NCBI GenBank assembly: GCA_038878295.1
Contig: JAVZVY010000002.1
Coordinates: 1 to 45,943, forward strand
Direction of reading: 5' to 3'
Length of the DNA stretch: 45,943 nucleotides
DNA from: Candidatus Micrarchaeaceae archaeon
GTDB taxonomy: Archaea; Micrarchaeota; Micrarchaeia; Micrarchaeales; CABMGC01
Part shown: one piece after another, positions 3,031 to 32,372 of the stretch
Position numbering within the stretch: position 1 is the stretch's first letter
Layout: each line of letters begins with the position of its first letter
Made by a program: the position numbers and the translations under genes
Notes under the pieces: generated by a model
Database searches by the model: none
What the model was told of the DNA's origin: nothing
What the model saw: only the letters and a program-made list of their open reading frames with translations

Positions 3031-3557
3031 AAGCTCAGTTCTGGTCTTTCGATGTCATATTTGCAATGGTGATATTCTCCCTAGTTATAGTCATACTCAC
3101 ATACGTTTGGTACAGCATCAACAGCCAGCTTTCCCTATCTGAAGGCTATGGCATACAAAACATACAGATGCAGCTGCTAGTGCTCAGAAACACGATCATG
3201 TCACAGGGAAGCCCTCCGGACTGGAACAATATAGTAATTGCAAACCAAACAAGCACATGGAGCAACATAACTGCAGGTCTTGGCACTGGGCAGGGCAATG
3301 AGATATCGCTGCAGAAGGTGATGACGCTTATGGCGATGTCAAACTATGATTACCAAGCGACAAAGCAGGTCATTGGCATAGGCTTCGATTATTATATAAG
3401 CATAAATTGGAATGGCTTTACAATATACTTGGGCCGCAATCCGGCATATTACAATGCAAAGTCCATACAGGTGGTGCAGATTCCTGTTATGATGAATGGA
3501 GTTCCTGGCACCATGACAGCAGAAGTGTGGACCAATACGAGCTTTGGAGTTGGTTAA
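3027..3557 (+). CDS. Pilin-like protein with archaeal class III (prepilin-type) signal peptide, about 176 aa
   Basis: The ATG at 3027 overlaps the upstream stop (ATGA); TTG at 3018 is the longest-ORF alternative. The N-terminus MKA|QFWSFDVIFAMVIFSLVIVILTYVW has a short charged leader, K-A-Q, then about 22 hydrophobic residues. Confidence 0.65.
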   Translation: MKAQFWSFDVIFAMVIFSLVIVILTYVWYSINSQLSLSEGYGIQNIQMQLLVLRNTIMSQGSPPDWNNIVIANQTSTWSNITAGLGTGQGNEISLQKVMTLMAMSNYDYQATKQVIGIGFDYYISINWNGFTIYLGRNPAYYNAKSIQVVQIPVMMNGVPGTMTAEVWTNTSFGVG

Positions 3558-8323: not shown

Positions 8324-8333
8324 CTGGCTGCTG

Positions 8334-9350
8334 CTACGGCGCCGCAGGCGCACCGCCTGCTCCGCTTATTGTCGAGAATATGCCATGTATAGCAGCGCCC
8401 GTTATGAAGAATATCGCAAAGCCGACAAGCAGGAAAATAGGCAGATATCTAATGCCTCTTGTTACTGAGCCGCTTGCGACAGCTGAAACTATCAATGCCC
8501 CAAACGCAGTAATGATAAATATGGCGCCCATCGCGAAGTCCTGATACTGCGTTGTGGTTATCTTAGGCGGCGACGGCCTAAGAAATGAAACGCCAGTTGT
8601 CGGCAACCCGCCTGGATTCTGCGCGAGTATTCCGCGCCACACCTGATTGGTCACGCCTATCATCTGCGACGTAAGGCCATACATGACTGGCGCGCCTATT
8701 AGAGCGGCGAAGGCTATGAATATAGTGTACATGAAGAGCTGGCCTGATATTTCCTTCTGTATGGTCTGCTGGTTTCTTATGTCCTTTGCAACCTGGTTCA
8801 AGAGATCGGACATGCCGCCGCCATACTGCACAGCCTCGTTCATCATTCTTACGGTGTGCTTCAATGTGTTTGACCTATATTTCTCGGCTAGATGCACCAG
8901 GGCGTTCTGCAGAGTTTCACCGGCGTATAGCCCTTTTGCTGTAAGTTTAACGTCTTCGCTGAAGTACTTGAATTCGGGTCTTGCAGCAAGCACCATAGCT
9001 CTGTCAAGGGCTATTCCGCTTCTCACGTTTGCCGCAACAAGCTGGAGGTAGTCCGGAAGTATGCTCTCAACGAACGTCTTCCTCTGGTCTATCTTCATGC
9101 TGAGCACAAAATAGATTGACGCTTCAAACACGACAAGCGCAACTATTCCGAGCGCCACGGATAGGGCAAAATGCAGTTTGAAAGCGAGGAAGGCGACATA
9201 TGAAGATATAGTCATAAGCAATATTCCTCCCACTATCATTATAGCAAGAAGCCTGTTTATCGTCATTTTTACTCCTGCAAGGTCAAGCTCTCTTGATAGC
9301 AATACGACGACGTTCCTCGAAACAAGCCTCTCGAATGGTATCTCTCTCAT
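8334..9350 (-). CDS. Type II secretion system F-domain platform protein (TadC/PilC/FlaJ-like), paralogue 2
   Basis: 338 aa with N-terminal TM helices, a cytoplasmic helical bundle (LPDYLQLVAANVRSGIALDRAMV..) and C-terminal TM helices. It is a tandem paralogue of the upstream gene and last in the ATPase operon. Confidence 0.7.
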   Translation of the reverse strand: MREIPFERLVSRNVVVLLSRELDLAGVKMTINRLLAIMIVGGILLMTISSYVAFLAFKLHFALSVALGIVALVVFEASIYFVLSMKIDQRKTFVESILPDYLQLVAANVRSGIALDRAMVLAARPEFKYFSEDVKLTAKGLYAGETLQNALVHLAEKYRSNTLKHTVRMMNEAVQYGGGMSDLLNQVAKDIRNQQTIQKEISGQLFMYTIFIAFAALIGAPVMYGLTSQMIGVTNQVWRGILAQNPGGLPTTGVSFLRPSPPKITTTQYQDFAMGAIFIITAFGALIVSAVASGSVTRGIRYLPIFLLVGFAIFFITGAAIHGIFSTISGAGGAPAAP

Positions 9351-9354
9351 TGCA

Positions 9355-10389
9355 TCACATCGCGAAAGTCGGCCTTGACGAACGCATTATGTTTAGGAAG
9401 ATGATCTGCAGGAAAGCTATGCCTATAAGGACGAAAACCAATGTCGAAGCATCTATTGTGAAGAGACTTATGAATGTAGTGAGTATGGCAAGAACGGCAA
9501 TGCCCATGCTTGGGAATATCACCCCGAAAAGCATGTAGAACATGGCCAGCGCGTTGAGCCTCTGACCGTATCTTCGTAAGTCTATGACCCTCTCCTGCGT
9601 GACTTCCTCTACGACACCCTGCAATGCGCCCACAATGTCGGCTCCTGCTTTTATGCTCACAGAAGCCTGAAGCATTATCCTCTTGAAGGTCTTTGACTCG
9701 CTTTTCTCGCTCACTTCCTCTATGGCCTGCTCTATCGGCATGCCGAGCTCAACGCGCTCGACGATTTTGGCGAATTCCCTGCTCGCCGCGCCGTAGCCCG
9801 TGCTTACCGCGACGATCGCGTTGAAAAGGGGCATTCCAGAACGCATGCCTATGACTATATCCCTTGCCGCAAAGAGAATGTCCCGCTCTATTTCCTTGCC
9901 AACATTCTTGCCCTTGGCCACAGGATAGTTGATGAACCTCGCGAAAAAGGTCTTGAACATACCGTAGAAAATTGCTGCACCGAGTATGATTGTCAAGGCT
10001 ATGTTGAAGCCGTAATGGATAAACACAACAATTATGGTAGCGGCTATTATTGCGCTGACTATTATGGAATTTGTAAGCATCTTCTTTACGAACTGGTCTG
10101 GCGTGGACTTTATTCCTTGCTCCTTCAGCGCGATTGGCAGATCTTTGTTTTTGGCCAGCAGCTTCGCGACATACATCTGGAACCAAGTGAGCTTCTGCTG
10201 CGGTGCTGTCTGCGGAGGCGCATTTTGCTTCTGCTGCTTCTTGAGAAGCTCCTCGATGCGCGACTCAGCGGCACTTTTTTGCTGATATATCGGCTTTGAT
10301 TTTATTTTGAAAAAAAGGAATCTCTTCTGCTTTGTGAAGCCTACCGGCTTTTGCTCAGCACTAGCAGCATTCTTCTTGAACAACGACAT
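9355..10389 (-). CDS. Type II secretion system F-domain platform protein (TadB/PilC/FlaJ-like), paralogue 1
   Basis: 344 aa. It has an about 100-aa Lys/Gln-rich cytoplasmic extension, then the same TM / helical bundle (ERDILFAARDIVIGMRSGMPLFNAI..) / TM layout as its neighbour. Only 4 nt separate it from the next gene. Confidence 0.7.
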   Translation of the reverse strand: MSLFKKNAASAEQKPVGFTKQKRFLFFKIKSKPIYQQKSAAESRIEELLKKQQKQNAPPQTAPQQKLTWFQMYVAKLLAKNKDLPIALKEQGIKSTPDQFVKKMLTNSIIVSAIIAATIIVVFIHYGFNIALTIILGAAIFYGMFKTFFARFINYPVAKGKNVGKEIERDILFAARDIVIGMRSGMPLFNAIVAVSTGYGAASREFAKIVERVELGMPIEQAIEEVSEKSESKTFKRIMLQASVSIKAGADIVGALQGVVEEVTQERVIDLRRYGQRLNALAMFYMLFGVIFPSMGIAVLAILTTFISLFTIDASTLVFVLIGIAFLQIIFLNIMRSSRPTFAM

Positions 10390-10400
10390 GATTGCACCGG

Positions 10401-10976
10401 TTATTTAACCTTTGAGAGCTTTGCCTCCGCTTCCTCAAGCCTCTTCGCGCGCATAGCGGCAAGCGAGGCCTGGAACGCATCGAGAGACTTGGACTTTTCA
10501 TACCTTAAAGTCTCGGCGAGCCCGAAGATCTCCTGCCTTATTATCTTAAGCTGCTCACCATTAAAAACGTTCTCATCAAGACCCTCGTTTATTTTCTCTA
10601 GTTCAGAGAGCTGGTCCTGAAGCGAGAGCGTTGGCAGCACGAGCTTGCCGACCTTTACCTTTTCGATCTCTTTAAGCACGCTCTCCTCGAATTCTATGCT
10701 GGCCTTGCTTACAAGCTTCTTTATCTCCTCGGAAACTTCTTTTGTTTCTGTGGGCTGGGCGCGCTGAACCTGCAATGGCTGCTGCTGTATTGCAGGTTGC
10801 GGCTGCGGTTTCAGCCCTTCTACACTCGATATGATTCTGTAAGCATCCTCATATTTGTATGCGCTTTCCTGTATTCTATTCTTGAGAGCGCTTTCAGGAT
10901 CTATTATTACAGATTCGTTCTGCGTCGAAACAGATTCTATCTCGCTTACCAGCTTCACTGCATCCGCGTATTCCAT
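10401..10976 (-). CDS. Hypothetical acidic protein with Gln/Pro linker and C-terminal coiled coil
   Basis: 191 aa with no TM segment. It has a PQPQPAIQQQPLQVQ linker and a Glu/Lys-rich heptad-like C-terminal half. No family was recognised. Short gaps wedge it between the ATPase and platform genes. Confidence 0.5.
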   Translation of the reverse strand: MEYADAVKLVSEIESVSTQNESVIIDPESALKNRIQESAYKYEDAYRIISSVEGLKPQPQPAIQQQPLQVQRAQPTETKEVSEEIKKLVSKASIEFEESVLKEIEKVKVGKLVLPTLSLQDQLSELEKINEGLDENVFNGEQLKIIRQEIFGLAETLRYEKSKSLDAFQASLAAMRAKRLEEAEAKLSKVK

Positions 10977-10995
10977 GATAGCGCCTATACTTTAA

Positions 10996-12507
10996 TTATA
11001 CCTTAAACAATTCATCTGAGTATGGCAGGCCTTTGTCAACTATGTCCATGACGCTTTGGCTGTTCTTGTAGTACTTTGCGACAACGTAACCGGCCTCGTT
11101 GACTCCGAAAACCTTGTTTTTGACCATCCATTCAAGGACTTTTTTCTTTTCGTCAATGTTTGCATACATTTCTTCTCTTGAGTAGCCCCCATAAAGCATT
11201 ATTGTGTCTGCGAGTCTTGACGGCTCGGCGATTCTGCTGAATGTGTCGTTCCTCACATTCCACCTGAAGAGAACGTTTGCGTCGCCTGTATCGAGTATTT
11301 CGCCGAACTCCAGAAGGCGTCTAATTCCGAGACGCCTGTGCCTGAATAGAGTCGCTATCCCGCCAATCGCGTTAATCAGGATCTTTGGCACGTCTATGGG
11401 CGGATTTGTCATCCTTACTATTGTGTCTTGCACGTTGTCCGCGTGCACAGTGCCGTAAACCGCGTGCCCAGTATGTATGGCTTCGAAGAGCGTTTCGGCA
11501 TCTTGCTTGATCCTCACCTCGCCTATGAGCATTATGTCAGGCCTCTGCCTTAATGCGTTTATCATCAGGTTGTAAAGCGTGACTTCGCCCTTGCCTTCTG
11601 GATTAGGCTGCCTCGTTAGCATCGGTACCCAATGGAGGAAATCTGGCAGCGTGAGTTCTCTAGTTTCTTCAACTGATATTATTCTCCTGTTTGCGGGCAT
11701 GAATATGCTCATCGCGTTGAGAAAGCTTGTCTTTCCGCTTGCTGTGCCTCCAGATATAAGCAGGCTGACCTCATTTTGTATGCTCAGCCAGACCAGAGCG
11801 GCAAGCTCGCTGGTTATAGTGCCGTTGGCTATGAGCATAGGCATTGTCCACGGATTTTTGGCGAACTTTCGTATTGTTATCGTGTTACCGAACTGTGATA
11901 TTGGATAGAGGGTGGCATTTACTCTGGAGCCGTCAGGCAGCTCGGCGTCCATGAGCGGCGAGATGTTTGTTATCTGTCTGCCCACGCGCCTGCCTATGTT
12001 CTCAGAATAGTCGTATATTGTCTCTTCATTCTGTATTCTTATTGTAGTCTTGCACCAACCATATTTCTTATGGAACACCCAGACGTTTTCCTTTGAGCTG
12101 TTCACAGCCACTTCTTCGAGATTCTCATCTGCAAGAGGAATCTCAAGTTCACCCAATCCGAGCATCATGTTTATTATGTAGGCTATAAGCACTTTCTTAG
12201 CCTCGTCGCTCGTCCCAGGGAGGTATTTGTCTATCACAACATTTGATGCATCTACGTACCTAGCAGTTAATTCATCGGCGTATTCTTTGTCTTCTATTCT
12301 GGTTGGATCTATCGGCACGAGGCTAAGCAACTCGGGCCTCATCGAATTTAGGAGTATTTTCGACGCATCGCCAAGACCGACAACGTTTACTTTGTACTCC
12401 AATGCGAATTTGCCTGTATCCTCTATGCTTATGTCGGCTTTGAGACCGTGAACGTCCAGGGTGTACGATGCGAGAACATTACCGGCCGTTACATTATCGT
12501 CAGTCAA
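10996..12507 (-). CDS. Type IV pilus / archaellum-type secretion ATPase (FlaI/PilB/TadA family)
   Basis: Walker A is GGTASGKTSFLNAM, the Walker B region is PDIMLIGEVR and the His box is GHAVYGTVHA. At 503 aa it has a FlaI-like N-domain. Confidence 0.9.
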   Translation of the reverse strand: MTDDNVTAGNVLASYTLDVHGLKADISIEDTGKFALEYKVNVVGLGDASKILLNSMRPELLSLVPIDPTRIEDKEYADELTARYVDASNVVIDKYLPGTSDEAKKVLIAYIINMMLGLGELEIPLADENLEEVAVNSSKENVWVFHKKYGWCKTTIRIQNEETIYDYSENIGRRVGRQITNISPLMDAELPDGSRVNATLYPISQFGNTITIRKFAKNPWTMPMLIANGTITSELAALVWLSIQNEVSLLISGGTASGKTSFLNAMSIFMPANRRIISVEETRELTLPDFLHWVPMLTRQPNPEGKGEVTLYNLMINALRQRPDIMLIGEVRIKQDAETLFEAIHTGHAVYGTVHADNVQDTIVRMTNPPIDVPKILINAIGGIATLFRHRRLGIRRLLEFGEILDTGDANVLFRWNVRNDTFSRIAEPSRLADTIMLYGGYSREEMYANIDEKKKVLEWMVKNKVFGVNEAGYVVAKYYKNSQSVMDIVDKGLPYSDELFKV

Positions 12508-13810: not shown

Positions 13811-14548
13811 TCATGAACCGCTTCGCTTCATTGCTCCAATTATTGAGCTTGCTATCTCGTCGCCAATAGCGTGCTCTGGAAGGACTAGATGGCTTACCCC
13901 GGCGCGGCGCATCCTTGGTATATCCTCCTCTTTCTTAATTCTTGCGGCAACCTTTATCCTGCTGTTGAGGTGCTTTGCGGCTATCACAGAAAGGGTGTTT
14001 TCCATATCGTCCTCGCCGAGGAGCACCAGCGCGTAGGCTTTTTGCGCGTTGGCTGCACTAAGCGACGCAATTTCTTTTGGAGTGCCTTCTATCGCGATCA
14101 TTTTTTCCCTAATCGCGGCGTCGACTTTCTGCCTGTTTCTATCGATTATCACAAATGGCACATTTGAAGCTGCTAGCTTTTTGGACATTTCCGCAGCGAT
14201 CTTATTGAATGGCGTCATGATTATGTGATTAGAAGCCTTGCGCGCCTTGTCTGCTACCGCCTTCCTCTTGAAGTTTACCTTGCCCATCAGGTCGTACAAG
14301 ATCGTCGTAACAAGTATTACGAACATCAGTTCTCCGATTATCTCTATGGAAAGAGCCGCAACAACTAGTGGGTTCGCTGTATCGACAAGGGCTTCGCTCG
14401 GCGGAAGCTCGACGCCTATAATGTTTATGAAACTCCAAATAACAGCTATGAAGAAGTCCTTTTCAACCGTATAAATGGCTACGGTGGAAGCTGCGAATAT
14501 CGCAAGCATGCTTATTATAAGCAGTTTTTGTATTGCTCTCATGATCAA
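13811..14548 (-). CDS. Membrane protein with 2-TM channel-like N-terminus and RCK/TrkA-N domain (no canonical K+ filter)
   Basis: It has TM1, a pore-helix-like segment (DFFIAVIWSFINIIGVELPP), TM2, then a Rossmann RCK domain (HIIMTPFNKIAAEMSKKLAASNVPFVIIDRN..). No T-V-G-Y-G motif was seen. Confidence 0.65.
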   Translation of the reverse strand: MIMRAIQKLLIISMLAIFAASTVAIYTVEKDFFIAVIWSFINIIGVELPPSEALVDTANPLVVAALSIEIIGELMFVILVTTILYDLMGKVNFKRKAVADKARKASNHIIMTPFNKIAAEMSKKLAASNVPFVIIDRNRQKVDAAIREKMIAIEGTPKEIASLSAANAQKAYALVLLGEDDMENTLSVIAAKHLNSRIKVAARIKKEEDIPRMRRAGVSHLVLPEHAIGDEIASSIIGAMKRSGS

Positions 14549-15333
14549 TACCTCAAAGCCCTTACTATATTGTCACCTATGTCTATGCCGGCAAGGTATT
14601 CAGGGAGAACGCACATGTCTATTCCGACCGCGAACATCTTGGTGCGCACCTCAGGCCTGCTGACCCTCACAAACGTCTTAATCTTGCTATTGAGCTTTCT
14701 CGCAGTGAGCGCGCCTACGAAGTTCAAGAGGTCGTTCTCTGCATCGAACACTATAACGCTTGAGCTCGATATGTTCGCAAGTTCGTAAGTGTGCTCATCC
14801 TTCAGGTCGCCGTTGAAAGCGACTATGCCGCGGCTCGAAAGCTCTGCAACGGTTTCGGGATTTTGATCCAAAACTATAAAGCGCTTCTTGTGCGCCGAAA
14901 GTTTTGCGATGAGCTCTTCGGCTATGCGGTTGTAGCCACAGATTATTATGTGGTCCCTGTAGCCACGCTTCTTTATGCTGTTTATGAACATGTCTATGTT
15001 CGCGTAGCCCACCATGCTTATTACCGCAGCTATTATGAAGCTCATTATGAAAAGTCTGCCGAAATTAGCTATGATCGCTATGATAAAGACAGCCGCCGAA
15101 CCTAGGGCGGTGAACGATTTATACAGAAACATCATGTCCGCCAGATCGAATGCCGCGCTAGTGTTCTGCGACCCGAAGAAAGCCTCTATTATGTAATATA
15201 CAGTCAAATACAGATCCTTCGTCACTAAAAGAAGCACTGCGAACGTGAATGCTATCAACACCACTGCGATGATTAGCGCAAGCTCAAGCACGTTGCCAGT
15301 TTCCTCATTTTCAGACTTTTGCATCTTAACCAC
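14545..15333 (-). CDS. Membrane protein with channel-like N-terminus and RCK/TrkA-N domain (paralogue)
   Basis: N-terminal TM helices are followed by HIIICGYNRIAEELIAKLSAHKKRFIVLDQNPETV.. (RCK N-domain). It overlaps the downstream gene by 4 nt. No T-V-G-Y-G motif was seen. Confidence 0.65.
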   Translation of the reverse strand: MVKMQKSENEETGNVLELALIIAVVLIAFTFAVLLLVTKDLYLTVYYIIEAFFGSQNTSAAFDLADMMFLYKSFTALGSAAVFIIAIIANFGRLFIMSFIIAAVISMVGYANIDMFINSIKKRGYRDHIIICGYNRIAEELIAKLSAHKKRFIVLDQNPETVAELSSRGIVAFNGDLKDEHTYELANISSSSVIVFDAENDLLNFVGALTARKLNSKIKTFVRVSRPEVRTKMFAVGIDMCVLPEYLAGIDIGDNIVRALRY

Positions 15334-15341
15334 GCGCAGTT

Positions 15342-15761
15342 TTAGAAGCCCTTCGATATCTCCTTGAAGAGCTCGTCGCTTGCAGACTTTGCAGGAGTGG
15401 CGATGAACTTCACGCCAACATCGATAAACTTCTCCTTTAGAGAATCGTCGTTTACCCTTGTGGCTATGATTATCTTCTCGTTAAGGCTCTTGGCAGTTAT
15501 TGAAGCGAAGAGGTTTTTGGCGTCGTCATCGAGCACTATCGCTATCGCTTTCGCGTTTGCTATGCCTGCTTCCTTTAGTATTTTTGAAGAGGTAGCGTCG
15601 CCCTTTATAACGTCTATTCCGCGCTCCCTCAGTATTTCGACTTTCTCAGGATCGATCTCGACAACCACAACGCTTATGCCATTCTCAAGCAGTATGTCGA
15701 CGACGCGCTCGCCCACAAGGCCGTAGCCGCATACTATCACATGATCCTTGAGCTCTTCCAT
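15342..15761 (-). CDS. Soluble TrkA-N/RCK domain protein
   Basis: 139 aa. HVIVCGYGLVGERVVDILLENGISVVVVEIDPEKVE..GDATS is a classic NAD-binding-type RCK fold signature. Confidence 0.85.
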   Translation of the reverse strand: MEELKDHVIVCGYGLVGERVVDILLENGISVVVVEIDPEKVEILRERGIDVIKGDATSSKILKEAGIANAKAIAIVLDDDAKNLFASITAKSLNEKIIIATRVNDDSLKEKFIDVGVKFIATPAKSASDELFKEISKGF

Positions 15762-24717: not shown

Positions 24718-24798
24718 AATTCGGCAGTATGCAGGATGGGCCTACTTGCGCGGAAATTATTTATCACGGAGTTGTTAGACCGCCATGCAGGGCATAGC

Positions 24799-24844
24799 TT
24801 TTTATATTTATATATTTTAATGTAATAACATTAAATTACATTAA
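24799..24844 (+). promoter_or_regulatory. TATA-like box plus three phased 7-bp half-sites upstream of the RHH gene (candidate promoter/operator)
   Basis: The TATA-like sequence is ctttttatatttatatatttt. The half-sites are TTAATGT (about 24817-23), ACATTAA (about 24828-34) and ACATTAA (about 24838-44), spaced 10-11 bp apart. The outer pair forms a perfect 10-bp inverted repeat, TTAATGTAAT/ATTACATTAA. The ATG is at 24854. Confidence 0.45.
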
Positions 24845-24853
24845 AGTGCAATT

Positions 24854-25075
24854 ATGGACAGAAAATATACAACAATAACAATCCCAAAACCGTTGTATGC
24901 AAAGCTGTCGAAGTTAATTGGACACACAGGGTTTTCCTCAGTCTCAGACTATGTTACCTATATGCTCAGGGAGACTCTGGCTGAGATAGAAGAAACCAAA
25001 AGGCGGCCTTATAAGGAAAAGTCCGTAGAAAAAAGCGAGATCGTGAAGAAGCTCAGAGCTTTGGGGTATGTTTAA
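24854..25075 (+). CDS. Ribbon-helix-helix (CopG/Arc/MetJ-type) DNA-binding protein
   Basis: YTTITIPKPLYAKLSKLIGHTGFSSVSDYVTYMLRETL fits a strand-helix-helix pattern. It is the first gene of the cysDN-like operon, just downstream of a repeat-bearing promoter. Confidence 0.75.
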   Translation: MDRKYTTITIPKPLYAKLSKLIGHTGFSSVSDYVTYMLRETLAEIEETKRRPYKEKSVEKSEIVKKLRALGYV

Positions 25076-25084
25076 GGTGCTATA

Positions 25085-25399
25085 ATGGCCAAAAAGAAGA
25101 AAACAGAAAGAAACAGAGCGGGAAGCACGAATTTAGAGGCAATTGCAAATGACCTTTGGTCTGATCCTAGCGAGAAGAATTGGAATAAGTTCTATTCTTC
25201 GGTTAAGAAAAGCAAGGCGAGATACTACAAAATAGTCTATGAGACTTTGAAGAACAGCCAGGATCTCATGAAGTCATTTGCGCTGATTTATGATTCTAAG
25301 ATGAAGCAGATAGCGAAGATACCTATAATAAAGAAAAATGGCGGCATCGAAGGTGCAACCATATACTTAAAAGACCTAAAAAACGCAAACGTGTTTTAG
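25085..25399 (+). CDS. Small basic hypothetical protein (104 aa)
   Basis: An AGGTG Shine-Dalgarno-like motif lies about 8 nt upstream. No family was recognised. Confidence 0.45.
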   Translation: MAKKKKTERNRAGSTNLEAIANDLWSDPSEKNWNKFYSSVKKSKARYYKIVYETLKNSQDLMKSFALIYDSKMKQIAKIPIIKKNGGIEGATIYLKDLKNANVF

Positions 25400-25406
25400 T
25401 GATTTT

Positions 25407-26195
25407 ATGATAGAGCAGAACCTTGATAGCTTAGAGGAAAAGAGCATTTACATAATGAGAGAAGCTAAAATGAAATTCAAGAACCTTGCCGCACTTTGGA
25501 GCATGGGCAAGGATTCTACGACAATGCTTGCAATTGCAAGGAAGGCGTTCATGGGCAAAGTACCATTTCCAGTTATACATATAGACAACTCTATAGACTT
25601 CCCAGAAACATACAAATTCAGGGAAGAATTAACTAAAAAGTGGGATCTTGAGCTGATAGTAGCTAAAAGCAAGATAAAGCCTGAGATATCTGGTTTCAGC
25701 TGTTGCGGAGCCAACAAAACAGAGGCGCTTAAGGAGGTAATGAAGGAATACAAATTTGATGCACTTATCGTTTCTATAAGAAGAGACGAACATGCGATAA
25801 GGGCCAAGGAACGCTATGTTTCTCCGAGGGACAGAAATTTCAAGTGGAATTACAAGAACCAGCCTGCTGAACTTTGGGATGACTATTCTTCAAAGATTGA
25901 TGAAGGGGGACATGTGCGCGTGCACCCTCTGCTCGACTGGAACGAGATTGACATATGGAGATACATAAAAAAGGAGCACATACCTGTAAATCCCCTCTAT
26001 TTCTCGAGAAATGGTTACAGGTACAGAAGCTTGGGCTGCACGCACTGCACAGTGCCTATAAAGTCAAACGCAAGCAGCCTCAATGATATAATAAAAGAAC
26101 TGAGCACAACGAGCATAGAGGAACGATCTGGCAGAGAGCAGGACAAAGAGAAAGAGTATGTGATGCAGCGTTTGAGAAGTCTTGGATATATGTAG
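25407..26195 (+). CDS. cysD: Sulfate adenylyltransferase subunit 2-like protein (CysD/NodP family, short form)
   Basis: LEEKSIYIMREA..LWSMGKDSTTMLAIARKAF..VPFPVIHID aligns by eye with E. coli CysD LEAESIHIIREV..LYSIGKDSSVMLHLARKAF..LPFPLLHVD. The motifs RRDE..RAKER and LGC are also present, as is the C-terminal LGYM (E. coli QGYF). Confidence 0.85.
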   Translation: MIEQNLDSLEEKSIYIMREAKMKFKNLAALWSMGKDSTTMLAIARKAFMGKVPFPVIHIDNSIDFPETYKFREELTKKWDLELIVAKSKIKPEISGFSCCGANKTEALKEVMKEYKFDALIVSIRRDEHAIRAKERYVSPRDRNFKWNYKNQPAELWDDYSSKIDEGGHVRVHPLLDWNEIDIWRYIKKEHIPVNPLYFSRNGYRYRSLGCTHCTVPIKSNASSLNDIIKELSTTSIEERSGREQDKEKEYVMQRLRSLGYM

Positions 26196-27409
26196 TGGGC
26201 AATATGCACGTATATAAGATAGTCCTGCTTGGAGACAAAGATCATGGAAAATCCACACTCATAGGCAATATGCTCATACTCACCAACAGCGTAAGCGGTG
26301 AAAGAATAAAAGAGGCAAAACGCATGAGCAAGGAGCTAGGCAGAGAATTCGAGCCGGGCTTCATTCTTGACAGCTTCTCGGAGGAGCGCGAAGAGGCGAT
26401 GACAATAGACACCACAAGGATGCAGCTCGCCTACAAGAAAGCTGGATTTGAATTTATAGATGTACCGGGCCACGAAGAGCTGATAACAAACATGCTCACT
26501 GGCGCTTCTAATGCGAACACGGCTGTGCTAATAGTTTCTGCAAAGAAAGGCGAAGGAATAAGCATGCAGACAAAACGCCATCTACTTCTTGCAATGATGC
26601 TTGGCATAAACGGCGTAGTCGTCGCTGTTAACAAAATGGACTTGGCCGACTACAGCAAGGATGCCTTTGATAAGATAAAGAACGGAATTACAGCTTTAAT
26701 AGATAACGCAGAGAAATCTCTAGGAAAGGTAAAGTTCGAGTTCGTTCCAATCTCTGCTTACAAAGGAGAAAACCTGATCAATCATTCAAGCAACATGAAA
26801 TGGTACAAGGGCAAACCGCTTGCTGAAGTTTTGCGTGGATATGCGATAAATAAACGCAAAGAAAAAGACGAAGGCTTGCGAGTTGTTGTGCAGGGCAAAA
26901 TGCCTGATGGCACACTTGCTTGCAAGGTGCTTGCTGGAGCGCTCTCTAAAGGAGCTGAAGTCATTTCAATGCCTGGCAGTATAAAATGCGTTGTAAACAA
27001 GATTGTAAAGGCAGGCAAGCCTGTATTACGGGCTTATCCTGGTTCATCACCAGCGTTGGAGCTTAGCAACGCAAATGGCATAGACAGAGGTAGCATAATT
27101 TCGTCACCTGATGATACGCCAAACGTAGGTAAAAAAATTGATGCGCTTGTTTTCTTCTCAGAAGTGCCTAAAAACGCATCTATAAGGCTGAATGGAGTCG
27201 AAACCAGGTGCGATATTGGTATATTAAAAGAGCTTGACATAACTGCAGGCACGCTCAAGGATGGCGAAGCAAGGCCTCTAGGCATATTCAAGGCAGAGAT
27301 AAGCTGCGATAAAGCTGTCGTATTTGAAAAACAGAGTAAAGCCAGCGAACTTGGCAGATTCACGATTTATGATGGTGGAAAATTCGCGGGTTTAGGTATA
27401 GTCATTTGA
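26195..27409 (+). CDS. cysN: CysN/NodQ-like translational-type GTPase, without an APS-kinase domain
   Basis: G1 is GDKDHGKSTLIGNML, G3 is DVPGHEELITNMLTGAS and G4 is NKMD, followed by two beta-barrel domains. The GTG start overlaps the cysD stop (TAGTG). ATG at 26204 is an alternative start. Confidence 0.8.
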   Translation: MGNMHVYKIVLLGDKDHGKSTLIGNMLILTNSVSGERIKEAKRMSKELGREFEPGFILDSFSEEREEAMTIDTTRMQLAYKKAGFEFIDVPGHEELITNMLTGASNANTAVLIVSAKKGEGISMQTKRHLLLAMMLGINGVVVAVNKMDLADYSKDAFDKIKNGITALIDNAEKSLGKVKFEFVPISAYKGENLINHSSNMKWYKGKPLAEVLRGYAINKRKEKDEGLRVVVQGKMPDGTLACKVLAGALSKGAEVISMPGSIKCVVNKIVKAGKPVLRAYPGSSPALELSNANGIDRGSIISSPDDTPNVGKKIDALVFFSEVPKNASIRLNGVETRCDIGILKELDITAGTLKDGEARPLGIFKAEISCDKAVVFEKQSKASELGRFTIYDGGKFAGLGIVI

Positions 27410-28631
27410 TCGCAATTTTTGATATCAATCTGTAGTACTTTTTAAGCATCGCCTTCTCTGTAAAAAGTTTGGCTATATTCCTTGAAGAAGCAATCGCCTG
27501 GTCCATGGCCGATTTGTGGTTTAGCATGTATGAGATTTTGTCAGCAAGATCAGCGCTGCTGAACGTCTTGAAAGAAATCAGCTTGCCTATACTTTGATCC
27601 TTCAAGTCATCTATATATGCACCTTTTGAAAGTATTATAGGCAAGCCGTGAGCGGCTGCTTCTATTATGGTTAGGTTGAAACCTTCCCATACAGAGGGCA
27701 GGACAAACAAATTTGATATGTTGTAGACGTGGTTAACATTTTCTTCGGAGATTTCTCCGGTAAATACGATTCTGTGGTCTTTTGATGCGAGTTTTATGTA
27801 ATCTGTAACCGATTGGCCGCCGCCTACTAGAAGAAGTCGAAGATGCTTGCCCTTGAGGCGCATGAAGGCCTTTATCAATGTGCTAACATTCTTCTGCCTT
27901 TCGAGCATTCTTCCTAGATACAATATTACGAAATCTGAATCGCTGAGACCATAATGCTCTCTGAGCCTTTTTTCGGCTCTCGCGTCACGCTTCACATCCA
28001 CATCAAGTCCGTTAGGTATATAGTAGACTTTATCCGTAAACTTCGAAATCTCCTTAAGCTGAGTCTTGTTCAAGGCGACGCATGCATCAAAATATCCGAA
28101 GAATTTTGACTTTATTGAGTTTATGCTCGCGCCAACGAGCCCAGTGCCCAAGGTAAGCGGCAGGTTACTTTTGCTGAAATATCCGGAAACGACGCTGCTT
28201 GAAATGCTTGCATGGTCTACGAATATTGTTTTAAAATCTAGGCTTTTCTTAACGCTTCTAAGCGTGGAAAAATCCCAGACAGAATTTGAAATTACAATAT
28301 CCGGAGCAATGCTTCTAATCTTTTTTATAAGCGTTTCCCTGCTCATTCCTATATCGAGCATGTTTCTGCCCATCATGAAGAAATATCCCGAGCGCATGAG
28401 CCAGTTTTCAGACAGGCCCTTCTTCTTAACAGCGGGTCCCTGCCAGCTTCTGCTGCCCCTGTTCAGCATTATTGTGTCTTTTTTCTCTTTTAGGTATTCG
28501 GTTTCGTAACCTAAGTAGCTTGTCTTGAAATATCTTTTCAAGCCCTTATAAAGAACGCTTGCTATTCTAGCCTCTCCGCCAAAGGTATTAGTACGCGAAC
28601 CGAAATCCATTATTAATACTTTTTGGTTCAT
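27402..28631 (-). CDS. Glycosyltransferase, GT4/GT1-fold family
   Basis: The C-terminal domain motif PSVWEGFNLTIIEAAAHGLPII is the E-x7-E region. A 4-nt overlap links it to the upstream gene. Confidence 0.85.
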   Translation of the reverse strand: MNQKVLIMDFGSRTNTFGGEARIASVLYKGLKRYFKTSYLGYETEYLKEKKDTIMLNRGSRSWQGPAVKKKGLSENWLMRSGYFFMMGRNMLDIGMSRETLIKKIRSIAPDIVISNSVWDFSTLRSVKKSLDFKTIFVDHASISSSVVSGYFSKSNLPLTLGTGLVGASINSIKSKFFGYFDACVALNKTQLKEISKFTDKVYYIPNGLDVDVKRDARAEKRLREHYGLSDSDFVILYLGRMLERQKNVSTLIKAFMRLKGKHLRLLLVGGGQSVTDYIKLASKDHRIVFTGEISEENVNHVYNISNLFVLPSVWEGFNLTIIEAAAHGLPIILSKGAYIDDLKDQSIGKLISFKTFSSADLADKISYMLNHKSAMDQAIASSRNIAKLFTEKAMLKKYYRLISKIAIK

Positions 28632-29836
28632 GAAAAGAACCTGCGTACGCGTTTGACGTCAAACTTTCTCATTTTGCTTGCGTCTATGCCAGGAACGAAG
28701 CTTATGTTGGCTGGTATGCCGAAACTCTGCGCATAGACTTTCCGTGCGTACAGCTCGCTGACTGCGTTCTCCGAGCCATTCAAATAGCTGAATATGAACT
28801 TTTTTATGTTTGCAAGGGAGCAGTATCTCCCATCGCTTCCGTGCGTGCCAGTTTGATTTCGCGACACTACAGCAAAAGGCACTTTTATGACTTCGTCGTA
28901 AAGCACCGTACCGTGTCCGACAAAACCATGTTCATTAAGCGCTTGACCGTGATCGCTCGTAAAAATTATGAGTTGATTGTCGCCATATCTGTCAAGCAGA
29001 TTTTTGGCTATTTCAACCGCATATTTGTATCCTTTGAGAGCGGCTTTCGAGTATAGTTTTCTCCATGCGGCTATTTTGCTTTGACTTGGTTTCTCTTTTA
29101 GGAAAGGCGTAGCCCAGTTGAAATCGGCATTCTTTTTGCCAACGTAAGGATCGTGGGCTTCCATTAAGTTTACAAAAATGAAATATGGCGTTTTGAAATG
29201 CGTTTCCTTTATTTTTCTTAATATGCGGTAGCCGCCTTTTTCTATGGGCCACCCATCTAAGACTTTGGCTTTTATTTTCTTAAGCGCGGCCACAGGCGTG
29301 TGCACGGCGGCGCTTGCCAGCGCTTCGAGCAGAAGCTCAGGCTCCTTGGCGAGTATACTGCTTGATATCCTTACCACATTGTTTCCGTATATGTTTCTAT
29401 ATTTTGCTATCAGGGGTTTAAGTTTGCTCGAAACCTCTACCACGCTGCCGAAGATGTCGGTAAAATAAGACTCTTCCGTAAAAGAGCCGAAATCCGTGAA
29501 GCCGTATACCGGATGCACATATGGATTTGCGGAAATCGCATACGTATGGAAACCCAACGCGTTTAGATCAGAGACAAACGTCGGCATCCTGAGCTTTATC
29601 CTGTCTATGTCCAAAGATTTTATTTTGCTTGTTTCATGCGCGCCGTGTTCGCTCGGATAAAGGCCTGTGAATATAGACGCGTGCGAAGGCAGCGTCCACG
29701 GCGATGGGGCTATGCAGTTCTTCAGGAATGTCGCATTGCCAAGAGAGCCGATCATGCCATATCTGCGCTCTAGTTTTTCGAATTCGTCAAGCCTAAGCGT
29801 GTCGATTACTATGAGAGCCAAGTTGCTCGCTTTCAC
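28628..29836 (-). CDS. Sulfatase-like alkaline-phosphatase-superfamily enzyme lacking the formylglycine motif
   Basis: Motifs are LIVIDTLRLDEF, PWTLPSHASIFTGLYPSEHG and FTSDHGQALNEHG. The GTG at 29836 forms a GTGA overlap with the upstream stop. The longest ORF starts at ATG 29905. Confidence 0.75.
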   Translation of the reverse strand: MKASNLALIVIDTLRLDEFEKLERRYGMIGSLGNATFLKNCIAPSPWTLPSHASIFTGLYPSEHGAHETSKIKSLDIDRIKLRMPTFVSDLNALGFHTYAISANPYVHPVYGFTDFGSFTEESYFTDIFGSVVEVSSKLKPLIAKYRNIYGNNVVRISSSILAKEPELLLEALASAAVHTPVAALKKIKAKVLDGWPIEKGGYRILRKIKETHFKTPYFIFVNLMEAHDPYVGKKNADFNWATPFLKEKPSQSKIAAWRKLYSKAALKGYKYAVEIAKNLLDRYGDNQLIIFTSDHGQALNEHGFVGHGTVLYDEVIKVPFAVVSRNQTGTHGSDGRYCSLANIKKFIFSYLNGSENAVSELYARKVYAQSFGIPANISFVPGIDASKMRKFDVKRVRRFFS

Positions 29837-31560
29837 TGGGTCACCTTCTCCACGAAATAATTGCCTATTGCCAGGTATTTTGCTCCTGTATTGAGAAGGG
29901 TCCATACAGCATCTTCCGGGCTCATCACTATCGGCTTTCCGTGCTTGTTGAAACTTGTGTTGAGTATTGCGCCTATCCCGGTTTCGTGCTTTATGTTTTC
30001 TATAAGCTTCCTGTAAAGCTTATTCTCTGCTCCGAGCACCTGCGGCCTTGTGGTGCCATCTATGTGAGACGCTGCGACAAGGTCGGCTCTGTGCTCCTTC
30101 CTGACATTGTAAGCAATTGTCATAAATTTTGTGCCTCTTGGATACGGATCAAGGAGTTCGGCTGCGTCTTCCTCAAGGATGGTGCTTGCAAAAGGCTGAT
30201 AATACGGCCTGCGCTTTATTATGATGTTGGTTTCATCCCTGTTCTTTGGATCGCTTGCGAGCGCAAGAACGCTCCTGTTGCCAAGCGCCCTAGGCCCGTA
30301 TTCCATCTTGCCCTGGAACCAGAGTAGGATCTTGTTCTCCTTTGCTATCTTTTCAGCTGCGTATTTCTCTATGTCCTTTACTTCTTCGTACTTGATCTTG
30401 TTTCCCGCTTTCTTCAATTCCCTTTCAATTGCTTCGTTTGTGTAAGAAGGCCCGAAGTAAATATTGTCAATCTGCTTATTGTTGAATTTTCCGTGCTCAA
30501 GAAAATCGACATAATATGCGGCGCCAAGGGCCAAGCCGCCGTCACCCATTTGCGGAAACACAAAGAAATTCTTTACTTCTGGCAGTTGGTTTATCAGCAT
30601 GTTCACTATCACATTAGAGAAAAATCCGCCGGCAACCGCTATGTTCGCGATCTTCGTTTCTTTTATGTACTGCTTGACTATTTTCAAAACCTGGTTTTCA
30701 ACGTGGCGCTGCACAGCATAGGCCAACGCTTCCCTGTTGTATTTCCAAAGAAGCTCATCCTTTATGTATTCAGCAAGCAAGTACTCGAATTTTTTGCCTG
30801 TGTTGCTTACCAGCTGCTTTTTCTTTTCGTCGTACCTTACAATATCTTCAAGCTCTTTTATCTCAGCCGGATACGAATAAGCTGCAAGGCTCATGAGCTT
30901 GCCTTCGTCTTCGCTGTATCGCAGGTCGCAGGCTATAGTTGCCGCGCCGTAAAGTATGCCTATGCTTGCGCTTGCTTTGAACTGATTTATGCGCTTAAGG
31001 TTGCCGTTTTCACCTATAGATATGCTTCCTGAGAGACCGTCGCCAGCTCCATCAAGCGTTATGACAAGCGCCTCCTTGAAGCCTGAGGAATAATACGCAG
31101 AAGCAGCATGCGCCATGTGATGGTCAACAAAGACTATCTTCTTGTTCAAGCCTACAGATTCAAGCCTCTTTCTAAGCTCATAGCCGCCAACATGCTCGCC
31201 TAGGTAACGCCACATTGATTTTGGCTTTTGGTCCTGCACAAGCTTAAATACAAGATTGGTTAGGCGCATTCGCCATACCGATGGCTTTTTTATCTCTTTG
31301 CGCCAAAGCTTCCTCCTTTTCACTTCTAAACCAGGAAATACTCGCGCAAAAAGTGCGCTGCCGCCTATCCATGGAATTGCGATCTTTTCAATTTCGTCAT
31401 CGCCAAGCTCCTTAAGCAGATAATTTATCGAGTTTCTAGGGAAACCAACGTCATTCTTGAGCTTGGTAAAGCGCTCCTCGTTGACTGCGCCAACGACTCT
31501 GCCTTCTTTCACAATTCCAGCACCAGCGTCGTGCGCGTCATGTATTCCTATTATAGGCAT
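29833..31560 (-). CDS. Carbamoyltransferase, NodU/CmcH family
   Basis: The N-terminus MPIIGIHDAHDAGAGIVKEGRVVGAVNEERFTKLKNDVGFP and the 575-aa length are typical of NodU/NovN/TobZ-type O-carbamoyltransferases. Confidence 0.85.
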   Translation of the reverse strand: MPIIGIHDAHDAGAGIVKEGRVVGAVNEERFTKLKNDVGFPRNSINYLLKELGDDEIEKIAIPWIGGSALFARVFPGLEVKRRKLWRKEIKKPSVWRMRLTNLVFKLVQDQKPKSMWRYLGEHVGGYELRKRLESVGLNKKIVFVDHHMAHAASAYYSSGFKEALVITLDGAGDGLSGSISIGENGNLKRINQFKASASIGILYGAATIACDLRYSEDEGKLMSLAAYSYPAEIKELEDIVRYDEKKKQLVSNTGKKFEYLLAEYIKDELLWKYNREALAYAVQRHVENQVLKIVKQYIKETKIANIAVAGGFFSNVIVNMLINQLPEVKNFFVFPQMGDGGLALGAAYYVDFLEHGKFNNKQIDNIYFGPSYTNEAIERELKKAGNKIKYEEVKDIEKYAAEKIAKENKILLWFQGKMEYGPRALGNRSVLALASDPKNRDETNIIIKRRPYYQPFASTILEEDAAELLDPYPRGTKFMTIAYNVRKEHRADLVAASHIDGTTRPQVLGAENKLYRKLIENIKHETGIGAILNTSFNKHGKPIVMSPEDAVWTLLNTGAKYLAIGNYFVEKVTQ

Positions 31561-31679
31561 GCGTCACACCGGTTTTCTATTAACCATGAGAATGCTAACC
31601 ATAATGCAGGCTATAACTGTAATATTGAGTATAATGTATTTCGAAAGAGGATTTAATAAGTTATCTTTGCCTAAGTGAT

Positions 31680-32372
31680 TTGGAGTGTATGGAGGGCTCT
31701 CTGGAAAAGTTCTACTCAGTGGTCAGTATAAACTATGACAAAGTATACAACATACTGACATTCGGACTTAGCAGGGTTTGGAGGCGCAAAATGCTCAACA
31801 AACTTGGCGCCAAAGGCAAAGCCATGGTGCTCGACCTTGCGACCGGAACAGGCGAAACCGCCATAGCGATAGCGAAACAGTATAAAAACTATAAAGTCAT
31901 AGGCCTGGATTTCAACGCTAAAATGCTGAAGATAGCTAAAGAAAAAAGCAGGGGCTTGAAAAACATAAGGTACATAGAGGGCAACGCCGAGGAATATAGG
32001 AGCTTCGGCTCAAAATTCGACTACGTGACTTTGACGTTTTCTCTCGGTGAATTCGAAGATTTGAGGAGCGTAATCGAGAACACCTTCAATATATTGAAAC
32101 CTGGAGGCAAAGTTTTGCTCATGGATATAAACGCTCACAGAAGCACGTTTATAAGAAGGCTCATAAACGCATACTACTATTTGAGGATAATGCCAATGTC
32201 TCAAGCTGAAATAAAGACCGAAATCGAAAGATACGTTCACAGCAGCTACTTTGAAGTGAATATGGAAAACATAGTAGCGCTTTTAAAGCAGGCGGGCTTT
32301 TCAAATATAGAAAAGGAGAGCATGGGCTTTGGCCTGGGCTTTATGATACTTGCGGAGAAGCCAGTTAGCTAG
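31680..32372 (+). CDS. Class I SAM-dependent methyltransferase (UbiE/MenG-like)
   Basis: YDKVYNILTFGLSRVWRRKM followed by VLDLATGTGETAIAIA (motif I). The start is TTG 31680 or ATG 31689. Confidence 0.8.
   Translation: MECMEGSLEKFYSVVSINYDKVYNILTFGLSRVWRRKMLNKLGAKGKAMVLDLATGTGETAIAIAKQYKNYKVIGLDFNAKMLKIAKEKSRGLKNIRYIEGNAEEYRSFGSKFDYVTLTFSLGEFEDLRSVIENTFNILKPGGKVLLMDINAHRSTFIRRLINAYYYLRIMPMSQAEIKTEIERYVHSSYFEVNMENIVALLKQAGFSNIEKESMGFGLGFMILAEKPVS

Follow-up and report, generated by a model that had tools for sequence, protein, structure and literature searches.

A 45,943-nucleotide stretch of DNA from a Candidatus Micrarchaeaceae archaeon (assembly GCA_038878295.1, contig JAVZVY010000002.1, positions 1 to 45,943; hereafter the window) carries an operon of four genes, encoding a ribbon-helix-helix (RHH) regulator, an orphan small protein, CysD and an EF1A/CysN-like GTPase, and this operon is the conserved unit of the region and a core feature of the genome-reduced phylum Micrarchaeota. 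We favour, at somewhat better than even chances, the interpretation that the operon represses itself and makes adenosine 5'-phosphosulfate (APS), which feeds sulfur modification of surface glycans or glycolipids. Under this interpretation, CysD, the PP-loop ATP sulfurylase subunit, would adenylate sulfate, GTP hydrolysis by the co-translated GTPase would drive APS synthesis, and the orphan protein of about 100 amino acids would accompany CysD. The RHH protein would bind a promoter-overlapping palindrome (TAATGT-N4-ACATTA) and thereby shut the operon off, while its KLRALGY tail, the same as that of CysD, would read the state of the enzyme complex. APS would then be used for O-sulfation or sulfo-sugar synthesis on surface glycans or glycolipids, which in the window would be built and tailored by the products of a converging operon (an O-carbamoyltransferase, a sulfatase-fold enzyme with a Thr nucleophile and a family 4 glycosyltransferase, GT4); the second of these, a member of the alkaline phosphatase (AP) superfamily, is the best candidate for the sulfuryl-handling step. 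An initial annotation of the region had read these genes and a neighbouring methyltransferase as a toolkit for glycan decoration resembling that for rhizobial Nod factors, an interpretation that is partly supported: a sulfate-activation pair lacking APS kinase does lie beside glycan-tailoring genes in an archaeon, and the link recurs across the phylum and in one distant lineage (locus L088), but the conserved unit is the four-gene operon, not a Nod toolkit.

All eight open reading frames (ORFs) of the initial annotation are present, with corrected start codons for two of them, the AP-superfamily and GTPase genes. The four-gene module lies on the plus strand and consists of the RHH regulator (73 amino acids, 24854-25075), the small protein (104 amino acids, 25085-25399), CysD (262 amino acids, 25407-26195) and the GTPase (404 amino acids, 26195-27409). 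One genome per GTDB species was scanned, of which 194 encode a relative, and 80 loci were analysed, nearly all labelled Micrarchaeota and including the complete genome of Ca. Micrarchaeum A_DKE; gene order was compared by tblastn and by clustering all ORFs in the fetched loci. The four-gene order is kept almost everywhere among these approximately 80 Micrarchaeota species loci, at identities to the window proteins of 73-89% for CysD, 42-69% for the GTPase, 32-67% for the small protein and 34-79% for the RHH protein. There are departures: the RHH gene is on the divergent strand in some clades, and the small protein is absent from the A_DKE/Mancarchaeum group, where the A_DKE annotation table lists RHH, CysD (K00957) and GTPase as Micr_00134-136. 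The best 120 database homologs of the window GTPase are from Micrarchaeota in every case where the organism is named.

Several loci show variations on the module. The metagenome-assembled genome of isolate clean1451 (DAHWQN01) has two module copies (L009 and L084), whose GTPases are 57% and 45% identical to that of the window and each of which is followed by an AP-superfamily gene of the window type (c7); these could be paralogous systems or a mixed bin. In seven loci, a free-standing ORF resembling a homing endonuclease sits exactly between CysD and GTPase (L019:9167-9991, L033:9136-9993, L064:9193-9996, L034:9554-9952, L036:9196-10017, L038:9627-10004 and L076:9091-9999). By eye, some of these ORFs are of the LAGLIDADG type, some are Vsr/DUF559-like and one is HNH-like; reductases were considered for them and rejected in favour of the homing-endonuclease-like assignment, and the recurrence of insertions at this site is consistent with strong conservation of the target. 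In the A_DKE group loci that lack the small protein (L054, L056, L059 and L069), the stretch about 1.5-8 kb past the GTPase holds a CDP-alcohol phosphatidyltransferase gene and then look-alikes, again judged by eye, of the small and large subunits of carbamoyl-phosphate synthase.

The CysD assignment of the initial annotation holds. The protein meets the NCBIfam CysD subfamily model PRK05253 (309.6 bits versus a cut-off of 195), scores 140 bits against PAPS_reduct and matches Pseudomonas syringae CysD (1ZUN_A) at E=2e-55 with about 50% identity, in two stretches covering residues 5-261. It has the PP-loop SMGKDS and ends in LGYM where bacterial enzymes end in QGYF, and its stop codon abuts the GTPase start, a pairing conserved in about 80 loci. 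The protein misses the stricter models TIGR02039 (229 versus 396.6) and PRK12563 (231 versus 413), and lacks an insertion of about 33 amino acids that is present in 1ZUN_A. It contains exactly four cysteines, C99 and C100 (SCCGANK; 25701-25706) and C211 and C214 (GCTHC; 26037-26048), and this CC...CxxC arrangement is invariant in 76 of 76 CysD orthologs, recurs in the short CysDs of four further loci (L087-L090) and is missing from 1ZUN_A. The same motif, at homologous positions, characterizes Fe-S APS reductases of the 2GOY type, in which we take the four cysteines to be the ligands of a [4Fe-4S] cluster; the CxxC half can be aligned directly to that of an L089 APS reductase, a protein with a match to 2GOY at E=2e-45. 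Since the catalytic Cys of the ECGLH motif is absent, the window protein is a CysD and not a reductase (309 bits for CysD versus about 82 bits for CysH). It probably binds a metal or an Fe-S cluster, judging from the cysteine pattern, and would catalyse GTP-stimulated formation of APS.

An alternative interpretation is that the module activates something other than sulfate (selenate, molybdate, another oxyanion or a different adenylation altogether), with CysD being a diverged PP-loop enzyme whose specificity is tied to the four-cysteine site. The missed equivalog-level CysD models, the extra motif, the lacking insertion and a GTPase score below the CysN cut-off would all fit such a divergence, but we consider it quite improbable because identity to canonical CysD is about 50% over the full length, the four-cysteine motif is that of APS-binding enzymes, and the module in one locus (L034) is co-operonic with UDP-sulfoquinovose synthase, a sulfur enzyme.

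The GTPase is a three-domain protein of the EF1A type (GTP_EFTU, 132 bits, together with GTP-eEF1A_C), with intact and invariant G1, G3 and G4 motifs (GxxxxGKST, DxPGH and NKxD). Its start codon is GTG 26195 or ATG 26204, and the database protein P0001 has 401 amino acids. An identical GTPase is on record from a metagenome-assembled genome labelled Candidatus Micrarchaeaceae archaeon. Described in the initial annotation as CysN-like, it does directly follow cysD, and the GTPase is downstream of CysD in every fetched locus with a CysD gene, but it scores below the cut-offs of both CysN models (TIGR02034, 225.2 versus 336.1; PRK05124, 216 versus 590) as well as of the EF-1alpha model PRK12317 (248 versus 502), and in the PDB it is closer to archaeal EF1A (198 bits) than to CysN (1ZUN_B, 155 bits). 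Because the GTPases that accompany other short CysDs form a gradation up to true CysN scores (278-348 versus a cut-off of 336), we read it as a divergent CysN-type subunit, the presumed equivalent of CysN. This reading fits the view that CysN derives from archaeal EF1A (PMC4342817). No APS-kinase domain is found in the 404 amino acids of the GTPase, which align with the bifunctional model at positions 24-418 of 632 only, and Pfam scans of the other main ORFs of the window detected no APS kinase, sulfotransferase or sulfate-reduction gene; on both points the initial annotation was right.

About 65 of 80 non-redundant Micrarchaeota loci encode the small protein. L088 encodes it too (35% identity, E=1e-15), with the stop codon of its gene overlapping the CysD start. 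Searches of Pfam, NCBIfam and PADLOC gave no match for it; a profile built from 33 orthologs has none in the PDB, and an AlphaFold2 (AF2) model (predicted local distance difference test score, pLDDT, of 70, from 4 sequences only) has none in Foldseek. A word-indexed homolog search returned 4 proteins only.

Expression of the module appears to be controlled from a compact site upstream of the RHH gene. An element resembling a B recognition element and TATA box, GCTTTTTATAT, is read at 24797..24807 on the plus strand as the likely promoter, and in most orthologous loci the element CTTTTTATAT closely precedes the operator. The operator palindrome TAATGTAATAACATTA (24818-24833) lies past the TATA box and ahead of the RHH start codon and is followed by an extra ACATTA half-site (24838-24843), so that the operator spans 24818..24843; the window contains no other exact match. 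Among 70 loci with enough upstream sequence, TAATGT-N4-ACATTA occurs with at most one mismatch within 900 nucleotides upstream of CysD in 55, and these 55 make up most of the about 62 matches in the 1.18 Mb of locus sequence surveyed. A second exact copy of the operator, TAATGTTATGACATTA, occurs in L049 (L049:15657-15672) in a divergent promoter region, in front of an operon of YgjP-like, AP-superfamily (c4 type, the PF01663 family), UDP-sulfoquinovose synthase (SQD1) and epimerase genes, a hint that the RHH regulon of that species includes the sulfoquinovose genes.

The regulator itself is weakly but consistently RHH/NikR-like. It scores 16.7 against Pfam RHH_1 (cut-off of 20.5, E=0.007), a profile of 31 orthologs matches the RHH domain of NikR at E=0.006, and the A_DKE ortholog is assigned to arCOG02836 CopG/NikR at 1e-13 (PMC8975820, Supplementary Data S5). 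Its C-terminal tail, KKLRALGYV, copies that of CysD (LRALGYV at 25052-25072 in the RHH protein; LRSLGYM at 26172-26192 in CysD). The pattern [KR]L..LGYx ends 57 of 57 RHH orthologs and [KR]LR.[LF]GYx ends 76 of 76 CysD orthologs, whereas LGY falls within the last six residues of only 6 of 1,520 other ORFs. This shared tail suggests tail mimicry or partner switching: since the RHH tail is the CysD tail motif, we infer that the repressor tail could dock at the site that receives the CysD tail, and such docking would give feedback between enzyme assembly and transcription. Both the four-cysteine CysD and the tail shared by RHH and CysD look new.

The link of the module to glycan genes was assessed in 54 non-redundant loci with at least 5 kb of downstream sequence, in which genes within 6 kb were counted. 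An AP-superfamily gene is present in 34 of the 54 loci, of the window type (c7) in 9 and of the c4 type in 25, and the two types never occur together (0 of 54). GT4 genes are found in 25 loci, Memo in 20, HhH-GPD in 15, carbamoyltransferase in 5, methyltransferase in 4 and UDP-sulfoquinovose synthase in 3. Close relatives (GTPase 69% identical) are fully syntenic with the window, and a relative whose GTPase is 57% identical keeps the four-gene module only; thus, the two operons are not co-conserved as a single set, and the carbamoyltransferase and methyltransferase in particular seldom accompany the module.

Other arrangements tie the module to glycan genes more closely. In four loci (L035, L037, L039 and L081), a c4 gene (PF01663, 110 bits) begins 1-4 nucleotides past the GTPase in the same orientation, and in L081 a GT4 gene overlaps this c4 gene. 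In L034, a UDP-sulfoquinovose synthase gene begins 16 nucleotides after the GTPase (NCBIfam equivalog, 630 versus a cut-off of 575; same gene cluster as the match to SQD1 1QRR at E=5e-95), surrounded by phosphoglucomutase, nucleotidyltransferase, epimerase, GT4 and c4 genes, and in L046 and L049 SQD1 and c4 genes are co-oriented neighbours. In L088 (6541-9381), from a distant lineage with a CysD 55% identical to that of the window, small protein, CysD and a c7-type AP-superfamily enzyme (29% identical, E=8e-39, SPWTLPSH retained) form a trio on one strand inside a dTDP-rhamnose/GT2/GT4 cluster, with no GTPase within 7 kb. The c4 fusions, the SQD1 arrangements and the L088 trio indicate that the glycan link exceeds inherited synteny.

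The recurrent partners of the module are therefore cytoplasmic AP-superfamily enzymes above all, followed by GT4 and nucleotide-sugar enzymes and sometimes UDP-sulfoquinovose synthase. Genes of sulfate assimilation do not adjoin it: a motif scan and approximate probe sequences, applied to the ±10 kb flanks of 86 loci, detected no paralog of CysC or CysH, and the method works, since the CysH probe recovered all 82 CysDs. The A_DKE annotation (PMC8975820, Supplementary Data S5) likewise contains no K00860, PF01583, K00390 or PF00685, which is partial evidence because it covers about the first 640 genes of the table. Since these archaea are genome-reduced symbionts, assimilation genes are lacking beside the module and its partners are glycan genes, APS most likely feeds sulfur modification of glycans. 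APS is a donor for several sulfotransferases in vitro (PMC10638397), and the S-layer protein of Micrarchaeum is glycosylated and its N-glycosylation genes are expressed (bioRxiv 10.1101/2021.04.28.441871).

For the AP-superfamily enzyme of the window (28628-29836, minus strand; longest ORF 28628-29905), GTG 29836 is the most likely start codon, since P0121, a database protein identical to it, has 402 amino acids; this start gives a four-nucleotide GTGA overlap with the carbamoyltransferase stop codon, versus a 73-nucleotide overlap for the longest ORF. The enzyme matches Pfam Sulfatase (PF00884, 49.8 bits versus a cut-off of 25) and Phosphodiest (27.4 bits versus a cut-off of 23). Its AF2 model (pLDDT 87) has S1 sulfatases and phosphonate monoester hydrolases as best Foldseek matches at template modelling (TM) scores of 0.5-0.6; the top 40 matches are all sulfatases or phosphonate monoester hydrolases (TM 0.44-0.60), with EptC at rank 44, and identity to any solved structure is 13-16%. 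The sulfatase-like label of the initial annotation is therefore apt for the fold but not for the active site. In the profile alignment, Thr48 (SPWTLPSH) occupies the position of the Cys/Ser that becomes formylglycine and a His replaces the Arg of the motif, so that the enzyme has T-L-P-S-H and not C/S-x-P-x-R; T48 is invariant in 42 homologs, as are D12, E226, H228, D295, H296 and H308. A true S1 formylglycine sulfatase was rejected on the absence of the formylglycine motif. Lacking a signal peptide and a membrane anchor, the enzyme is predicted to be cytoplasmic, and its chemistry may be sulfuryl or phosphoryl transfer.

Several observations weigh against APS production for glycan sulfation as the role of the module. 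No recognised sulfotransferase is present; UDP-sulfoquinovose synthase requires sulfite, yet no APS reductase was found; and the sequencing runs that hold the window sequence are hot-spring DNA metagenomes only, with no RNA. The residues specific to sulfatases are replaced in the AP-superfamily enzyme (the formylglycine Cys by Thr, the Arg by His and the sulfate-binding Lys by His), so that it may perform phosphoryl-transfer chemistry. An AP-superfamily gene is missing within 6 kb in 20 of the 54 loci, and relatives of the L004 type have unrelated neighbours beside the module. Part of the adjacency is inherited gene order, because the housekeeping genes Memo and HhH-GPD are syntenic as well. 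The operator is absent upstream of the carbamoyltransferase operon in the window, where a single match with two mismatches is at chance level.

These observations bear on two competing explanations. The first, which we regard as improbable though far from negligible, is that adjacency reflects nothing more than inherited gene order, the CysD-GTPase operon serving an unrelated purpose (sulfate assimilation with the remaining genes elsewhere, or another use of APS) and the second operon being an independent glycan cluster. Besides the synteny of Memo and HhH-GPD and the missing operator of the second operon, this explanation draws on the relative with a GTPase 57% identical, which has the module and none of the second operon, and on L089, from another organism, in which a short CysD and CysN stand beside APS reductase in an assimilatory context. 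It does not readily explain why, in several lineages, the CysD-GTPase operon has taken in AP-superfamily or SQD1 genes at spacings of 1-16 nucleotides, or why the trio of small protein, CysD and AP-superfamily enzyme arises independently in a rhamnose cluster, and it sits poorly with the lack of CysC and CysH around 86 loci and in about 640 A_DKE table genes.

The second is that the AP-superfamily enzyme resembles the nucleotide pyrophosphatase/phosphodiesterases (NPPs) as a hydrolase, or is a phospho-group transferase, and clears APS or nucleotide by-products or adds phospho-substituents to the glycan, with any sulfate transfer left to another enzyme. The Thr nucleophile and the TLPSH...GLYPSEHG motif resemble those of NPP-type enzymes, the Phosphodiest cut-off is exceeded, the alternative neighbour c4 clearly belongs to PF01663, His residues take the place of the sulfate-binding Arg and Lys, and the invariant E226, H228 and H308 suggest a second metal site. 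We nevertheless consider this unlikely because the enzyme is structurally closest to S1 sulfatases and phosphonate monoester hydrolases and not to NPPs, EptC ranks no higher than 44, and hydrolysing the product of a costly GTP-driven enzyme of the same operon would be futile. A bolder proposal, doubtful at present, is a route independent of 3'-phosphoadenosine 5'-phosphosulfate (PAPS), in which an Fe-S CysD and an EF1A-like GTPase make APS, the AP-superfamily enzyme represents a novel type of sulfotransferase that acts on glycan precursors via a sulfo-enzyme intermediate, and the RHH tail, mimicking that of CysD, competes for its docking site. The gene identities, their conservation, the operator and the linkage of the genes are observed, whereas APS as the product, a glycan as the acceptor and the roles of the AP-superfamily enzyme and of the RHH tail are inferred.

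The second operon lies on the minus strand and is tightly coupled, as initially annotated, with four-nucleotide overlaps between the GT4 and AP-superfamily genes and between the AP-superfamily and carbamoyltransferase genes; the overlap of its convergent end with the module is also real, the GTPase and GT4 stop codons sharing 8 nucleotides at 27402-27409. GT4, its last gene (27402-28631), matches Glyco_trans_1_4 (88 bits) and Glycos_transf_1 (86 bits). The first gene (29833-31560) encodes an O-carbamoyltransferase with Carbam_trans_N (141.7 bits) and Carbam_trans_C (176.8 bits) domains, related to NovN, GdmN and TobZ at E=1e-57 to 1e-50. It belongs to the NodU family in this broad sense, but misses the NodU equivalog NF041651 by a wide margin (91.7 bits versus a cut-off of 1000) and, on these matches, is a generic O-carbamoyltransferase of the NovN/GdmN/TobZ type.

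The S-adenosylmethionine (SAM)-dependent methyltransferase (31680-32372, plus strand) is indeed divergent from the second operon, but it is of the UbiE/MenG type and its membership in the system is unsupported. It matches Ubie_methyltran at 126.6 bits and TIGR01934 at 136.7 versus a cut-off of 158; NodS is not among its 15 Pfam matches, its best NCBIfam match is MenG/UbiE, and the gene usually travels with Memo and not with the module. At 32365-32372, it converges with a Memo/AmmeMemoRadiSam-B gene with an 8-nucleotide overlap, a geometry like that of GTPase and GT4. A defence or conflict system (PAPS-reductase-like BrxP/Dnd or GT4-conflict) was also considered for the region and rejected, PADLOC giving generic domain-level matches only (BrxP, 39.7 bits; mad2, 83.6 bits for the methyltransferase domain).

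Farther away, the other main ORFs of the window include archaeal housekeeping genes (Topo VI, LonB, FEN1 and diphthamide synthase). The interval 100-12507 contains genes for three large Laminin_G_3 (ConA-like) proteins and a small protein with pilin-like hydrophobic N termini, adjoined by genes for a T2SSE ATPase and two T2SSF membrane proteins, and looks like a locus for a type-IV-pilus-like surface filament or adhesin. Its pilin-like and Laminin_G_3 surface proteins have about 2 sequons per 100 amino acids and are plausible glycoprotein targets. On the minus strand at 13811-15761, there are three consecutive TrkA_N (NAD-binding) genes, two of them with N-terminal extensions of more than 100 amino acids that have no Pfam match.

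The window DNA occurs in hot-spring metagenomes and derives from a member of the Micrarchaeaceae, within the DPANN archaea. Because a costly operon that consumes ATP and GTP has been kept throughout the phylum while DPANN shed most of their biosynthesis, its function should be central to their lifestyle, and most plausibly concerns the chemistry of the surface by which these cells contact the host. In the literature that we found, sat, cysN and 'arylsulfatase' genes of DPANN receive only passing mention as sulfur-cycling potential (PMC7906910, PMC8091004), and archaeal CysDN is discussed only for anaerobic methanotrophic (ANME) archaea and a few methanogens. If our interpretation is correct, such genes would be re-assigned from biogeochemical sulfate reduction to glycan decoration, and the AP-superfamily enzyme would be a concrete candidate for an archaeal glycan sulfotransferase, a class of enzyme that has long been missing. 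A CysD subfamily carrying the same Fe-S motif as APS reductases would also bear on the divergence of CysD and CysH and on the proposed origin of CysN from archaeal EF1A (PMC4342817), and the operator, the RHH repressor and the tail mimicry would together define a compact regulatory circuit.

Comparison with rhizobial nodulation genes is instructive at the level of enzyme classes. As proposed for the window, NodP/NodQ form a pair of the CysD/CysN type dedicated to glycan decoration and not to cysteine synthesis, and a carbamoyltransferase of the same Pfam family is found nearby. However, NodQ has an APS-kinase domain and sulfation proceeds via PAPS and NodH, neither of which is in the window; the NodU equivalog is missed, the methyltransferase is not NodS-like and NodABC genes are lacking in the window. 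A literal Nod-factor-like pathway, in which equivalents of NodPQ, NodU and NodS decorate a chito-oligosaccharide, would account for the co-occurrence of these enzyme classes, but with the NodU score so far below its cut-off, no NodS match, no NodH sulfotransferase, NodABC genes or APS kinase, and a carbamoyltransferase and methyltransferase only rarely linked to the module, we regard it as very improbable.

The bacterial CysD-CysN of Escherichia coli and P. syringae (1ZUN) is comparable in its PP-loop CysD with a C-terminal ...GY(F/M) tail, its adjacent and translationally coupled EF1A-family GTPase and the presumed reaction, ATP and sulfate to APS driven by GTP hydrolysis. It differs in that the window CysD is short (262 amino acids, without the insertion of about 33 amino acids) and carries CC...CxxC, the window GTPase scores nearer archaeal EF1A and under the CysN cut-off, and the operon, outside any cysC/cysH context, additionally encodes an RHH repressor and the orphan small protein. 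With the Fe-S APS reductase of Pseudomonas aeruginosa (2GOY), the window CysD shares the PF01507 fold family and the CC...CxxC motif, but it lacks the C-terminal ECGLH Cys and is far closer to CysD.

Among AP-superfamily enzymes, S1 sulfatases and phosphonate monoester hydrolases share the superfamily core and are the closest fold matches of the window enzyme, which differs from them in lacking C/S-x-P-x-R, in its predicted cytoplasmic location and in its 13-16% identity to solved structures; the Thr nucleophile is shared with EptC/EptA, LtaS and NPPs. The carbamoyltransferase has the two-domain architecture of TobZ, NovN, GdmN and NodU (a Kae1-like N-terminal domain and a family C-terminal domain), but only in 5 of 54 loci does such a gene accompany the sulfate module.

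Sulfur-modified N-glycans are known from other archaea. In Haloferax volcanii, Agl7 is involved in sulfation of a dolichol-phosphate hexose (PMC3892788), and this pathway resembles our proposal in the sulfur-modified N-glycans that it yields. The Agl3 (UDP-sulfoquinovose synthase) pathway of Sulfolobus also leads to sulfur-modified N-glycans, and a true SQD1 is co-operonic with the module in L034, although the window has no SQD1 gene. Relative to systems of the CysDN/NodPQ type, the micrarchaeal module is thus set apart by six departures: a short CysD with four cysteines, an EF1A-like GTPase without an APS-kinase domain, an orphan small protein, an RHH/operator circuit with tail mimicry, an AP-superfamily partner in place of a PAPS sulfotransferase, and phylum-wide retention in DPANN archaea.

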